This document shows, in pieces, positions 2,760-61,167 of a DNA stretch of 61,241 bases (its first letter is position 1; the number at the start of each line of letters is the position of its first letter). The position numbers and the translations under genes are program-made. Source of the DNA: an uncultured Bacilli bacterium (GTDB lineage: Bacteria > Bacillota_I > Bacilli_A > RF39 > UBA660); assembly GCA_944332715.1 (NCBI GenBank), contig CALVKN010000003.1, positions 1 through 61,241 of the forward strand. The letters are read 5' to 3'. Under the pieces are notes generated by a model, which saw nothing but the letters and a program-made list of their open reading frames with translations, had not been told where the DNA came from and searched no databases.

Positions 2760-4340
2760 ATGAATATGACTGATAGAAGAAAATTAGAAAAATATTTAAT
2801 AATTGGGGTAATAGCTTTATTTGTAGTAATTAGTGCTACATATGCATTTTTTCAAGCACAACTTGATGGTGGAGCACAAACAGATGTTAATATTGGTTCA
2901 AATACAACAGATAGCTTAACATTTGATGTAAATAATGCAATTAATTTAAATATTAACCAATTTAATTTTGGGGTAGGAGCCGGTAATCTTTCAAGTAGTG
3001 CAACAGCAAGTGCTACACTGCTTGCTAATAACAGTACTAATACTGCAACTTATACTTATTATGTTTATTTTAGAATTAATTCTAATGAATTTACTTATAC
3101 TACAAGTGATTCTAAACCAGAAATAATACTTACAGTAACTGATCCAGCAGGACAACCTGTTACCTCTATTGATGGACTTACATATGTTCAAAATGTTCAA
3201 ACTACAACTAGTGATGGATCTACCCAAACAGTAAGTGGTTTTGATATTACAACAGCAACAGGTACATTTGCAGTGGCTTCCGCTTATAGCATTACTGCAA
3301 ATAGTACAACACCAACTACTCAAAATTGGGAGTTCACTGCAACATTTATTAATCTAGATTCAGATCAACAAGGTAATACCGGCAAAACAATGGATGCTGA
3401 TATAATAATACAAGAAGATGAAATATCAACTTTAGCAGATTATATAACAGGATTGTATACAACAGATGGAGAAAATGGACTATACTATCACGATGCCGAT
3501 TTGGCAAATGGAGCAGTGGATAATAGTTACAGATATTCTGGAGCAAATCCAAATAACTATGTATGCTTTGGTTCAACAGAAAGTCCTTGTCCAGCAGAAA
3601 ATCTATACAGAATTATCGGAGTATTTGATGATGATAAAGATAGTAATTATCAAATAAAATTAATAAAGAGTGATTATACAACAAGCACAATGCTGGGAAC
3701 AAATGGAAGAGATTATTATGGCACTTATTCATATACAACTACATATTATAAAGGAAGTATGGATACAAGTACAATAGCAGGATATAGATGGAATTATGAT
3801 ACTAGTGTAAGTACGTATGGATCAAATAACTGGACAACAAGTGAATTTAATAAAATAAATTTAAATACCAATTATTGGAATTATTTAGGTACAACATGGC
3901 AAAACTTAATAGCACCAACAACCTGGCATCTCGGAGGAATGACATCAAGTAGTAATACAGCAAAAGCATTTTATGATGGAGAAAGAAATAATGACGGATA
4001 TGGCAGTAACCCAACAACCTATACTGATGAAATAGGATTAATGTATCCAAGCGATTATGGATATGCTGCAAGTCCCGATGCATGGGCAACAAATTTATAT
4101 GATTATGTAAATTCAACAATAACAGCAAACAATTGGCTGTATATGGGGCTTTATGAATGGACAATTACTCCATACTCATCGGACTCGAATCGCGTGTTCA
4201 GCGTGAGCGGCAGCGGCACCTTGAACGACGGCAACGCTATCATCGGCGCTTCTGCCCGCCCTGTCTTTTATCTAGAATCTAATGTTGCATTACAAGGGGG
4301 AAATGGAACTTCAAGTGATCCATATCGCCTTGCGGTGTGA
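2760..4340 (+). CDS. Secreted/surface protein with SipW-type signal peptide and a C-terminal CLec-like (DUF6273-like) domain; probable DGR target
   Basis: Hydrophobic N-terminus ending ATYAFF; Thr-rich body; IGLMYPSDYGYA...WTITP...ARPVFYL C-terminal domain with a GC-rich variable segment. Confidence 0.8.
   Translation: MNMTDRRKLEKYLIIGVIALFVVISATYAFFQAQLDGGAQTDVNIGSNTTDSLTFDVNNAINLNINQFNFGVGAGNLSSSATASATLLANNSTNTATYTYYVYFRINSNEFTYTTSDSKPEIILTVTDPAGQPVTSIDGLTYVQNVQTTTSDGSTQTVSGFDITTATGTFAVASAYSITANSTTPTTQNWEFTATFINLDSDQQGNTGKTMDADIIIQEDEISTLADYITGLYTTDGENGLYYHDADLANGAVDNSYRYSGANPNNYVCFGSTESPCPAENLYRIIGVFDDDKDSNYQIKLIKSDYTTSTMLGTNGRDYYGTYSYTTTYYKGSMDTSTIAGYRWNYDTSVSTYGSNNWTTSEFNKINLNTNYWNYLGTTWQNLIAPTTWHLGGMTSSSNTAKAFYDGERNNDGYGSNPTTYTDEIGLMYPSDYGYAASPDAWATNLYDYVNSTITANNWLYMGLYEWTITPYSSDSNRVFSVSGSGTLNDGNAIIGASARPVFYLESNVALQGGNGTSSDPYRLAV
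4170..4265 (+). other. Putative DGR variable region (VR) ending in a GC-rich IMH-like element
   Basis: 60/96 G+C in an AT-rich gene; 20 of 32 codons end in C (TAC, GAC, CGC, AGC, GGC, ACC, AAC, ATC), as expected from mutated AAC template codons; ends GCCCGCCCTGTC. Confidence 0.75.
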
Positions 4341-4350
4341 GAACCTTTAA

Positions 4351-4384
4351 GCCTCCGCTGGCGGCTCTCAATCCGCCCGGAGGC
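4351..4384 (+). promoter_or_regulatory. GC-rich hairpin downstream of the VR (candidate DGR cis-acting hairpin)
   Basis: GCCTCCG-ct-GGCGG-ctctcaat-CCGCC-CGGAGGC with no following T-run. Confidence 0.55.
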
Positions 4385-4424
4385 CGCCGAGTTATCAACA
4401 ATGAATAAAAATAGAAAGGAAAGT

Positions 4425-5543
4425 ATGAAAACATTAAAAGATATTGATGTAAGTAATAAAAGCATTGTAATAAGATGTGATTTTAATGTACCTATGGAGG
4501 GTACTAGAATAACTGATAATAGTAAGATAGTTAAGAGTTTGGATACTTTAAAGTATTTACTTGATAGAAATTGTAAAGTAATTATATTAAGTCATTTTGG
4601 TAGAGTTAAAAGTGAAGAAGATAAAAGTAAAAATACTTTAAAGTATGTAGGTCAAGAACTTAGTAATTTATTAGGTAGAGAAGTAAAATTTGTAGATAAA
4701 TGTAATGGAGCAAAGGTTAAAGAGTTTGTAGATTCATGTAACAAGGGAGATGTTATTTTATTAGAAAATACTAGAATAATGGATTATCCTGAAAAGTTAG
4801 AGAGTGGAAATAATATGGAACTTGCTAAGTTTTGGGCGAGCCTTGGTGATGTTTATGTTAATGATGCATTTGGATCTATGCATAGAGCTCATGCATCTAC
4901 GGCTGGTATTGCTAAATTTATTCCGCATTGTATTGGGTTACTTGTTGAAGAAGAACTTAATAACTTAAGTGTATTAGTAAGAAATACTCCTCATCCTTTC
5001 GGAGTATTTATGGGTGGAGCTAAAGTAGATGATAAATTACCTATAATTAAGTCATTACTTGATAGATGTGATTATCTTCTTACTGGTGGAGGTATTGCTA
5101 ATTCTTTCTTGAAGGCTAAAGGTGCCGATGTTGGTAGTAGTATTGCTACAAGTGATGATGATATATTAAATGAATTAAGGGATTTAATGGATAAATATAA
5201 GGGTAAAATAATACTTCCAGTAGATTTTACAATAGATGATGGTATAATATATGATATTGGAAGTAAAAGTTTAGAATTATATAAGAAATATATTAATCAA
5301 AGTGAAATAATATTTGTCAATGGTACTTGTGGTAAATTTGAAGATGATAGATTTACAGAAGGAACTAGTGGATTATTTAAAATACTTAAAGAAAGTAATA
5401 AAAAGGTTATAGTTGGTGGTGGTGATACTGTTTCAGCTGCTAAAAAGTTTGGCTACTCATTTGATTTTATGTCTAGTGGGGGAGGAGCAACACTAGAATA
5501 TATTGCCGATGGAACACTAGCAGCATTAGAATGGATGGAATAG
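4425..5543 (+). CDS. pgk: Phosphoglycerate kinase
   Basis: RCDFNVP, SHFGR, NDAFGSMHRAHAS, GGAKVDDK, GGGATLE; RBS AGAAAGGA before ATG 4425. Confidence 0.97.
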   Translation: MKTLKDIDVSNKSIVIRCDFNVPMEGTRITDNSKIVKSLDTLKYLLDRNCKVIILSHFGRVKSEEDKSKNTLKYVGQELSNLLGREVKFVDKCNGAKVKEFVDSCNKGDVILLENTRIMDYPEKLESGNNMELAKFWASLGDVYVNDAFGSMHRAHASTAGIAKFIPHCIGLLVEEELNNLSVLVRNTPHPFGVFMGGAKVDDKLPIIKSLLDRCDYLLTGGGIANSFLKAKGADVGSSIATSDDDILNELRDLMDKYKGKIILPVDFTIDDGIIYDIGSKSLELYKKYINQSEIIFVNGTCGKFEDDRFTEGTSGLFKILKESNKKVIVGGGDTVSAAKKFGYSFDFMSSGGGATLEYIADGTLAALEWME

Positions 5544-5547
5544 TATT

Positions 5548-60484: not shown

Positions 60485-60736
60485 ATTCAAGTACTTAGTT
60501 ACTTGTTTTTTGTTTTTTTCTATTATAGATTTGGGGTAAGCTTTTCTTTCATCAGTTAATTCTAATAAATAATCAGTTGATGTATTGTAATATTTGGCTA
60601 GTTTTATTAATAACTCAATTGGGAGTTGTCTTTTCCCTATTTCATAAAAACTATATGCAACTTGGGATACATTTAAAATCTTGGCAATATCTGATTGGGT
60701 CAAATCTTTATCTTCTCTTATTTCTCTAATTCTCAT
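60479..60736 (-). CDS. XRE-family HTH transcriptional regulator
   Basis: RIREIREDKDLTQSDIA...SQVAYSFYEIG...STDYLLELTD. Confidence 0.9.
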   Translation of the reverse strand: MRIREIREDKDLTQSDIAKILNVSQVAYSFYEIGKRQLPIELLIKLAKYYNTSTDYLLELTDERKAYPKSIIEKNKKQVTKYLNL

Positions 60737-60764
60737 TTAGAATCACCTAGACATTATTTTAAAA

Positions 60765-60830
60765 TAAAACAATTTGGTGTATTGATTTTTAAAACATATT
60801 GTTTTAAAATGTATATAATAATATGTTTTA
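60765..60830. promoter_or_regulatory. Palindromic operators between the XRE gene and the divergent gene
   Basis: TAAAACA-tat-TGTTTTA at 60790 with degenerate copies at 60765 and 60814. Confidence 0.6.
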
Positions 60831-60849
60831 GAATGGAGAGTATATTTTT

Positions 60850-61167
60850 ATGAGTAAGAAGATAATTGTATTTAGTGTATTAGTTTTGATTACTGTTTTA
60901 TCTTTTTTAGTGTTAAATTTTAGAGGAGATAATAAAATTATTTACACTGATAAAAAAAGTAACCAAATAATAAATACTAATGCACTAACAATGATGTATG
61001 AAACAGAAGCAGATAGTGGAGAATATCAAGTAACTAGTGATACCACGTGGCCACAGGATGGTTATATCTTCAATGAAACTTTGTCGAGATGTGAAAATGG
61101 TGGAACACTAACTTGGAATAGTGAAACTAATAAAGTTGTTATGCAAACAAATAGTAGTGATAAGTGA
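60850..61167 (+). pseudogene. Modular surface-protein paralogue of 38897, truncated
   Basis: LTMMYETEADSGEYQV..WP..GYIFNETLSRCENGG matches 38897; similarity breaks at SDK-TG|A where the paralogue continues SDKCFVYFD. Confidence 0.7.

Follow-up and report, generated by a model that had tools for sequence, protein, structure and literature searches.

The 61,241-nucleotide contig CALVKN010000003.1 of an uncultured Bacilli bacterium (assembly GCA_944332715.1; GTDB lineage RF39, UBA660), hereafter the window, carries four loci, starting at positions 2760, 29520, 38897 and 60850, that belong to one dispersed family of multi-module proteins. Taken together, the evidence makes it probable that one of these loci is an intact member, and the other three decayed members, of a large, lineage-specific, modular family of secreted or membrane-anchored lectins which is diversified by diversity-generating retroelements (DGRs) and whose loci turn over. 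The intact gene, at 2760-4340, bears the footprint of a DGR-type variable region (VR), as judged from its codons and from the comparison with its orthologues. A complete DGR with a target from the same family was identified on another contig of the genome, and family loci differ in presence between congeneric species.

According to the proposed mechanism, a full member would possess one of two front ends, either N (a cleavable or anchoring helix followed by a beta-sandwich) or A (a transmembrane (TM) helix and a two-cysteine domain), followed by an optional spacer, a C-terminal DUF6273-type lectin domain (M+B) and, in some cases, a small C module. The last ~100 nt of the lectin domain would constitute the VR. 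A reverse transcriptase (RT) would copy a template repeat (TR) while misreading adenines, the resulting cDNA would replace the VR, and NNC codons would thereby arise from AAC codons on the surface that binds the ligand. Several dispersed paralogues would be served in trans by two TR classes, with 2760-4340 as a remote target of the second class, the machinery of which is found in congeners and not in this assembly. Members would duplicate, receive new front ends by module exchange, insert at core-gene junctions and be lost, and these losses would leave fragments such as the other three loci of the window.

The window is the entire contig C3 of a 1.53-Mb assembly (75 contigs, estimated 90.5% complete) and has a GC content of ~29%. 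Its marker genes, which include those for Spo0A and GerQ, ribosomal-protein operons and glycolytic operons, identify it as chromosomal DNA from a small Bacillota of the spore-former type. Among named database entries, the closest homologue of the 2760 gene belongs to a Candidatus genus placed in Bacilli, and the public runs that hold this stretch are mostly labelled chicken gut. Below, G000 denotes the genome of the window, G003, G004, G008, G010, G011 and G029 are congeners, and C1, C2 and so on are contigs of G000.

Modules and fold of the protein family

The preliminary description of the window had reported four loci that share modules, and all four open reading frames (ORFs) were recovered. 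By BLASTP, module B is strongly shared between 2760 and 29520 (47/102 identical residues, E 1e-25), as is module A between 38897 and 60850 (52/105, E 4e-36), whereas the C module common to 29520 and 38897 is only weakly similar (14/31, E 8e-5). Module C is also present in other loci of the genome, on C4, C56 and C1. The 2760 protein had been described as an N-terminal domain followed by B; both are present, but module M lies between them, and M and B belong to a single fold (see below).

Iterated searches with hidden Markov models (HMMs) of the modules over the 10,775 stop-to-stop ORFs of G000 retrieved 41 module-bearing ORFs, far above chance and well beyond a family of few members, which together span 45,582 nt or 2.99% of the assembly. 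Module B was found in 27 of them, M in 20, N in 19, A in 13 and C in four. The commonest architecture is N+M+B, with 13 complete proteins of 510-860 residues; three ORFs have the order A+M+B, one of them with C, and another six combine A with other C-terminal parts, two as A-Fn3-like-C. Optional spacers consist of an Fn3-like domain or an insert of ~380 residues, and all full members start with a signal or TM helix. Since 14 of the 41 ORFs lie no more than 1 kb from a contig end, compared with 9.8% of the genome, the assembly breaks at the family, and the count of 41 is a floor.

Some architectures depart from this scheme. A 675-residue protein (C18:17779-19803) contains two HMM-detected A-like Cys-pair domains and a further Cys-pair-like stretch recognised by eye. 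Its long C-terminal region is rich in glycine, and the protein represents an additional use of module A. At C25:9761-10234 module A is joined directly and in frame to the tail of B; in this ORF and in C41:283-447, A or just the neighbouring helix-turn-helix (HTH) gene is fused to the last ~35 residues of B (RPxFYL tail). From their sequence, both short derivatives read as internal-deletion products of A+M+B genes.

The AlphaFold2 (AF2) model of the 2760 protein, built from a 45-sequence alignment, had a mean predicted local distance difference test score (pLDDT) of 88.9. Its residues 223-526 (M+B) matched residues 32-304 of 9qa6_A with Z 16.8 (root-mean-square deviation (rmsd) 2.9 A, 204 aligned residues, 20% identity), a domain of the Thomasclavelia ramosa IgA peptidase named DUF6273 by the authors of the structure (PMC12402451). 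Further matches scored much lower, with Z 6.2 for TvpA, 6.1 for the C-terminal domain of Lcl and ~6 for PvdO and CarF. A second model, of an A+M+B+C member (pLDDT 76.8), returned the same top match (9qa6, Z 15.6), followed by dozens of C-type-lectin (CLec) domains at Z 4-6.7, TvpA (Z 5.3) and Mtd (Z 4.0) being among the fold matches. On these models, M and B are predicted to form one DUF6273-type CLec domain, and the VR of the 2760 gene sits at the 3' end of this fold. The Pfam model DUF6273 (PF19789) gave no match to the window proteins even at E<=10; it recognised a family member of a congener (33.9 bits vs cutoff 23.5), and a precomputed DUF6273 tag was found for five of the 239 database homologues among the matches listed.

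The remaining modules are less well defined. Module N consists of a signal helix and a beta-sandwich of ~175 residues, whose best structural match in the 2760 model was Bd1399 (Z 6.6); the TasA fibre 8aur_A followed with Z 5.1 (rmsd 4.6, 126 aligned residues; Foldseek E 8e-3), and both scores fall in the noise range. The designation of this domain as 'SipW-type' in the preliminary description was not upheld and amounts to a resemblance, although two SipW-type signal peptidases are encoded in G000. In the model of the A+M+B+C member, module A appears as a TM helix that a linker of low confidence connects to a small beta domain with two Cys (~70 residues), and module C had pLDDT values of 37-67. 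Pfam and NCBIfam scans of the window family proteins yielded no useful match, even at E<=10 and E<=1; N, A and C are without any model in either collection, and a profile of the A+M+B+C protein had no match at E<=1 among PDB sequences. An ESM Atlas match for module A (best score 0.80) was not used because it fell within the range of shuffled sequences. A type IV pilin-like anchor was likewise rejected for this module: a Gly-Phe...Glu5-type motif is lacking from the A N-termini, and in the model the helix is 22 residues long and is set apart from the beta domain by the linker of low confidence.

Retroelement cassettes and variable regions

A complete DGR cassette is located on contig C1 (Table 1), where an A+M+B gene is followed downstream by a TR, a MutS_I-like MSL gene (PF01624, 24.0 bits vs cutoff 20.6), a gene of Avd size and an RT gene. 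The 120-residue Avd-like product has no Pfam match; only its size, its place in the cassette and its similarity to the corresponding G029 protein (37% identity) support the assignment. TR and VR align over 101 nt without gaps, and all 16 mismatches fall at TR adenines. By sequence, the cassette reads as a canonical, intact DGR, and relatives of its RT (RT1) were detected in 35 of 41 genus genomes (E<=1e-20). When the TR of this cassette (TR1) was aligned with three other family VRs (those on C5, C28 and C37), 20/25, 16/21 and 23/27 mismatches were at adenines.

Other RT-related loci were also found in the genome. A second C1 cassette (82110-83335, region to 84553), 70-75% identical to the first and located beside an N+M+B gene, comprises remnants of an Avd-like and a truncated MSL gene as well as a stretch resembling a TR; since it has no RT, it is read as a decayed DGR. 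Two further RTs (C14:17725-18723 and C17:11214-11996), one of which is interrupted by TAG, were dropped as DGR candidates because neither a family member nor a TR lies nearby; they are probably of the retron/defence type, a label that is our own reading of their N-termini and not the result of a tool.

The VR of the 2760 gene stands out from its surroundings. NNC triplets make up 14 of its 16 hypervariable codons, and its GC content is 54.5%, compared with 28-31% in the neighbourhood. In an alignment of 23 orthologues (81-92% identity, all with the same architecture), mean column entropy was 1.35 bits for residues 468-501 and 0.34 elsewhere, and at least six residue types occurred in 16 of 34 VR columns vs 9 of 492 columns elsewhere. 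These 16 columns contain Y, S, N, R, G, D, F, I, L, T, H, V, A, P, C and one Q, with none of K, E, M or W, a set that corresponds to the residues reachable from AAC via changes at adenines, and the VRs differ in all 23 orthologues. On these grounds, the gene is considered to bear a DGR variable-region footprint. Across this 29%-GC genome, a high GC content (>=0.52 in the VR segment) was observed in 10 of the 22 B modules scored.

The scaffold of the 2760 VR is unlike TR1, with 28 non-adenine mismatches, and resembles that of the gene at C2:5526-8087, with which it shares 82 of 91 fixed positions. A second TR class (TR2) was found in the congener G029, beside an RT that is 48% identical. The G029 TR aligns with the 2760 VR over 93 nt without gaps, 17 of the 22 mismatches being at TR adenines, and the proportions were 16/21 for the C2 VR and 18/20 for the C27 VR. 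In G008, a syntenic orthologue was identified (gap - orf419 - x - orthologue - pgk), the VR of which differs from the TR of that same genome at 22 positions, 20 of them TR adenines. This TR and the orthologue lie on separate contigs, which points to the 2760-type locus being a remote DGR target. Within G000, masked-pattern, AAC-density and blastn scans for a TR fitting the 2760 VR returned only the coding VRs on C2 and C27.

Directly after its stop codon, the 2760 gene is followed by a GC-rich inverted-repeat element. GC-rich elements also follow seven further family genes, on C1 (2), C8, C27, C28 and C5 (2), and a VR footprint is present in all of the genes so equipped that were scored except C28:499 (GC 0.44), the C27 gene having been matched to TR2 rather than scored. 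The element is possibly a DGR target-recognition hairpin or, alternatively, a terminator.

Locus turnover and competing explanations

As the preliminary description had stated, the four loci lie at junctions between core genes, which the flanking genes confirm, and the occupancy of these junctions varies among congeners. At the site of the 2760 gene, between gap/orf419 and pgk, G008 has a family gene and G011, G003 and G004 have none; G010 is consistent with presence, both flanks stopping at contig ends. Upstream of parA, where the window has 29520, intact family genes were found in G011 (three), G004 (two) and G010, together with a 65-residue B fragment in G003 and none in G008. Between rpsR and rplI, the site of 38897, G010 contains the same HTH-A island with an intact 480-residue A+M+B gene and BRO-N genes, G008 has nothing, and G011, G004 and G003 carry two unrelated genes. 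After yitT, which 60850 follows in the window, there is no insertion in G011, G008 or G003, and in G004 an HTH gene plus an A+M gene occur one junction away from this site. These comparisons support the gain and loss of family loci between congeneric species, in agreement with the turnover previously proposed.

Evidence for module exchange was provided by a maximum-likelihood tree of 20 M+B domains. In this tree, the A-type DGR target nests in a clade of four N-type genes (support 100/98), the other two A-type domains are placed elsewhere, and the starred branches force two or more N/A label changes. Well-supported branches of the M+B tree thus argue for at least one exchange of front modules. 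The shuffling repertoire that had been postulated is supported by a large, modular family and at least one N-terminal exchange, but the architecture of the 2760 gene itself is fixed in all 23 close orthologues.

The front modules have a narrow distribution. Among 200 scored genomes of the class, N was detected in three and A in four, and the carriers are genus-mates only, save for one weak A match in a sister genus; each congener contains 13-14 copies of N and 5-13 of A. The whole 2760 protein found matches in 12/12 genus-mates (16-77 each) and in 1/8 genomes of other families, and at least 7,446 relatives and 4,230 clusters at 50% identity were counted in public protein space.

In the window itself, three of the four loci are broken, as had been noted. 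The 29520 ORF is a 3' fragment whose start coincides with the border between M and B; it lacks a signal sequence and any N, A or M module, the DNA upstream shows no homology to M, and genes for a DUF6508 protein and a DUF4143 ATPase occupy the place of the missing 5' part. Its VR-equivalent segment (GC 0.41, 5/33 NNC codons) shows a faded footprint or none. In the 38897 gene, a complete A module is joined straight to C, and C is disrupted by a frameshift near 39335-39343, with a stop at 39341-39343 and C homology continuing in another frame to 39488. In the 60850 gene, homology stops at the codon of a conserved Cys (TGA, 61165-61167); the contig itself ends 74 nt further on, at 61241, and this truncation may be an assembly artefact. 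Also as described, no recombinase family was found in the window among the 46 ORFs scanned, which lie outside the ribosomal-protein block. The DGR hypermutation proposed for the window holds in part: the C1 DGR and the footprint of the 2760 VR agree with it, but the machinery lies on other contigs, a footprint is seen at just one of the four loci, and the fitting TR/RT class is absent from this assembly.

Several results weigh against a family under DGR diversification. Decay rules out a function as family members for three of the four window loci; the RT search gave no match on the window contig, where no TR was found either; and RT2 and TR2 were found nowhere in this 90.5%-complete, 75-contig assembly. 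Five of the 22 mismatches between the 2760 VR and the G029 TR are off adenines, and the C5, C28 and C37 VRs each have 4-5 non-adenine mismatches to TR1, so that these three genes may be past TR1 targets only. Modules A and C are without fold assignment, the whole-model fold searches being dominated by the lectin domain, and no Pfam or NCBIfam HMM, such as the Peptidase_M73 or SipW-type signal-peptide models, ties N to TasA or SipW-type signals. Finally, four public runs, belonging to two studies, have contigs with a VR identical to that of 2760, and this speaks against fast change in this strain; the VR may be static here. That comparison was made at 80% likeness, which mixed paralogues and relatives, and all four runs were represented by contigs; divergent public contigs over the VR (28-44 other letters) may come from this gene or from paralogues.

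Part of this evidence would be explained if the family had been written by DGRs in the past, with 2760 as a fixed allele that has lost its DGR, the other three loci as pseudogene debris, and no ongoing variation. The missing RT2 and TR2, the identical VR in the contigs of four runs and the non-adenine mismatches of the 2760 VR to the congener TR agree with such a relic, as do the RT-less cassette at C1:82110-83335 and the faded footprint in the B module of 29520. However, the assembly is incomplete, with family ORFs enriched near contig ends (14/41 vs 9.8% of the genome), all 23 orthologues have different VRs in spite of 81-92% identity, the NNC/GC footprint of the 2760 gene is still sharp (14/16 codons), and the genome possesses one intact DGR with a perfect adenine-only TR/VR pair. 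A relic is regarded as a serious contender, albeit an unlikely one.

A phage origin, with the loci being remnants of tail-fibre or tentaclin-like receptor-binding genes scattered by prophage decay, would accord with the role of DUF6273 domains as DGR targets in gut Firmicute phages (PMC10743442; see also PMC11792537) and with the BRO-N and XRE HTH genes that adjoin the A-type locus. Against this, the DGR has remote targets on other contigs, and Wu et al. tie remote targets to non-phage DGRs (PMC5758913). Moreover, the surroundings of the four window loci contain no structural genes of phages, every full member begins with a signal or TM helix, each congener carries 13-14 N and 5-13 A copies, and the lectin domain is C-terminal, unlike that of tentaclins, all of which makes a phage origin improbable. 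Marginally more improbable still is recombinational antigenic variation, with the fragments (B+C, A-only, B tails) serving as silent donor cassettes for gene conversion as in Mycoplasma, Borrelia and Neisseria: the many fragments in the genome, the in-frame deletion derivative that joins A to the B tail at C25:9761-10234 and the module exchange in the M+B tree would fit, but paralogous B modules mostly share 72-80% nucleotide identity, the longest near-identical tracts (~70-100 nt) lie inside VR scaffolds, the fragments are not grouped beside an expression site, no recombinase is nearby, and orthologue differences are confined to adenine-templated codons.

If the family is indeed one of modular, DGR-diversified lectins, its proteins would be displayed on the cell surface and might function in ligand binding or adhesion, the DGR system may be active at present in this strain, and the role of the variation could be either antigenic variation or adhesin diversification. 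As adhesins, they would be obvious candidates for the attachment of uncultured chicken-gut bacteria to hosts or partners. A bolder version, which is put forward only tentatively and is itself rather unlikely, would see here possibly the densest cellular DGR-target repertoire, in which two retroelements acting in trans write at least 10 lectins, N leads them to SipW-processed TasA-like fibres and A to the membrane, and the outcome is a set of combinatorial adhesins reminiscent of adaptive immunity; if true, this could be the means by which an organism with a reduced genome keeps pace with changes in the surfaces of its host or partners.

Table 1. Coordinates of family genes, their parts and associated elements in the window and, where the contig C1 is indicated, in the remainder of the genome.
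Feature	Position	Strand	Basis or remarks
Intact family gene, 526 aa, N+M+B	2760..4340	+	ORF, HMMs, AF2 model
N module of 2760 gene	2760-3449	+	signal/TM helix aa 6-35, beta-sandwich aa 48-222
M module of 2760 gene	3450-4028	+	HMMs; roughly 190 aa, between N and B
B module of 2760 gene	4029-4337	+	HMMs
DGR-type variable region of 2760 gene, aa 466-506	4155..4277	+	NNC codons, GC, column diversity, TR match
Core match of 2760 VR to TR2 class	4167-4259	+	alignment to G029 TR
GC-rich inverted-repeat element ending in CCGAGTTATC	4341..4395	+	directly after stop of 2760 gene
5'-truncated remnant, 187 aa	29520..30083	+	B module 29520-29825, C module 29826-30080
XRE-type HTH gene, 81 aa, divergent from A-type gene	38581..38826	-	HTH homology
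Palindrome in divergent promoter region	38842..38888	.	23-nt arms, 87% complementary, 1 nt spacer
Broken A+C gene	38897..39488	+	A module 38897-39235, C from 39236
Second XRE-type HTH gene, 85 aa, divergent from second A-type gene	60479..60736	-	HTH homology
Truncated A-type gene, 105 aa	60850..61167	+	homology to module A
Complete DGR cassette with A+M+B target	C1:1166-4779	-	outside window
RT	C1:1166-2260	-	PF00078
TR (TR1)	C1:3334-3234	-	~1 kb upstream of RT
VR of A+M+B target	C1:3752-3652	-	alignment to TR1

Both A-type loci of the window are accompanied by a divergent XRE-type HTH gene (Table 1). Homologues of these genes occur beside A-type genes or B-tail fragments at five loci of G000, and the homologue of the 38581 gene in the G010 island is 81% identical. 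The adjacent HTH protein may regulate the A-type genes, and the palindrome at 38842-38888 is likely its operator. The HTH/A-type pair at 38897 is bracketed by a 43-nt inverted repeat (38551-38593 and 39516-39558, 74% complementary), the motif of which is absent at the second HTH-A cassette; it had seven matches in the window vs 2.8 expected, only two of them at the first cassette, and no claim of a mobile unit with terminal repeats is made. Tandem BRO-N domain genes follow at 39685-41415, with internal direct repeats of 173-300 nt and 78-80% identity, and the G010 version of the island contains three BRO-N genes.

Other neighbouring genes were also noted. The gene spo0A is embedded in a glycolytic string, pgk-tpi-spo0A-gpmI (4401-11282), the order of which is kept in four congeners, and an insertion between tpi and spo0A (6265-8761), with genes for a PDDEXK nuclease (DUF1016/YhcG) and an AAA ATPase (DUF4143), is missing from 4/4 congeners examined. 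A second DUF4143 ATPase gene and a DUF6508 gene, at 27004-29035, adjoin the B+C fragment. The 419-residue ORF at 1407-2666 (minus strand) has no Pfam or NCBIfam family and is conserved beside pgk in 4/4 congeners examined (31-38% identity). The 663-residue ORF at 56581-58572 also lacks a family match, and its G010 counterpart is only 46% identical, compared with 68-90% for the flanking genes.

Comparison with known systems

The principle is not new, since lectin paralogues that are targeted by DGRs and bear grafted N-terminal domains have been documented before. Wu et al. (2018, PMC5758913) catalogued DGRs with remote targets and MSL accessory genes and gave as maximum seven non-adjacent targets, in Treponema; this corresponds to the Treponema denticola TvpA system, cited there with seven remote targets. 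In cyanobacteria, dispersed CLec paralogues with grafted N-terminal domains were described, some as remote targets and some with remnant TR homology (Vallota-Eastman et al., 2020, PMC7517822), and in gut phages DUF6273 domains act as DGR targets in tentaclins and 'tgt2' proteins (PMC10743442). In the literature searched, nothing was found that joins 'diversity-generating retroelement' and 'TasA', no work on DUF6273 concerned cellular multigene families, as judged by title or abstract, and neither the family, its N-terminal modules, its lineage nor its density was encountered, although supplementary tables of DGR surveys may list relatives. What is new is the family itself, with its N, A and C modules and its density in a very small genome, as well as a housekeeping-flanked gene (gap - x - pgk) that appears as a remote DGR target. 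In practice, gene callers will label its members 'hypothetical', assemblers break at them, and strain-level comparisons of these metagenome-assembled genomes will be distorted by them.

As for the individual parts, N resembles TasA and camelysin in having an N-terminal helix followed by a beta-sandwich, in a genome with two SipW-type peptidases, and differs from them in the lack of an HMM match, in fold scores within the noise range and in the absence of an adjacent sipW gene. The M+B domain finds its best structural match in the N-terminal DUF6273 domain of the T. ramosa IgA peptidase (PDB 9qa6). There, however, the domain is fused to an M64 peptidase, is sortase-anchored and is not known to be diversified by a DGR (PMC12402451), whereas no peptidase domain occurs in the present family. 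With the phage tentaclins and 'tgt2' proteins (PMC10743442), the family shares a DUF6273-like lectin, a hairpin hypermutated from AAC-rich TRs and variable sites rich in Tyr, Ser, Asn and Arg. In tentaclins, the lectin is N-terminal, and behind it come Ig domains, including one that anchors the protein to the virion; in contrast, the lectin described here is C-terminal behind a signal or TM module, with no Ig chain after it, and its genes are chromosomal, dispersed and outside prophages.

The retroelement itself is similar to the MSL cassettes of architecture D (Wu et al., 2018, PMC5758913), since the C1 cassette has MutS_I-like and Avd-sized genes upstream of the RT. Unlike in architecture D, the order is target - TR - MSL - Avd-like - RT in class 1 and target - MSL - Avd-like - RT - TR - target in class 2, as seen in G029 and G008.

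Close parallels are found in the DGR paralogues of cyanobacteria and Treponema (PMC7517822, PMC5758913), in which C-terminal CLec domains with a 3' VR also carry grafted N-terminal domains, one or two RT/TR cassettes serve several paralogues in trans, and some paralogues keep remnant TR-VR homology only. In contrast to those systems, the CLec domain here is of the DUF6273 type instead of the FGE-sulfatase/DUF1566 type, and in place of kinases or caspases it is joined to modules for secretion or anchoring that Pfam does not contain. The host also differs, being a Bacilli lineage with genomes of 1-1.5 Mb, and the family is much denser, with 41 loci that account for 3.0% of the assembly.

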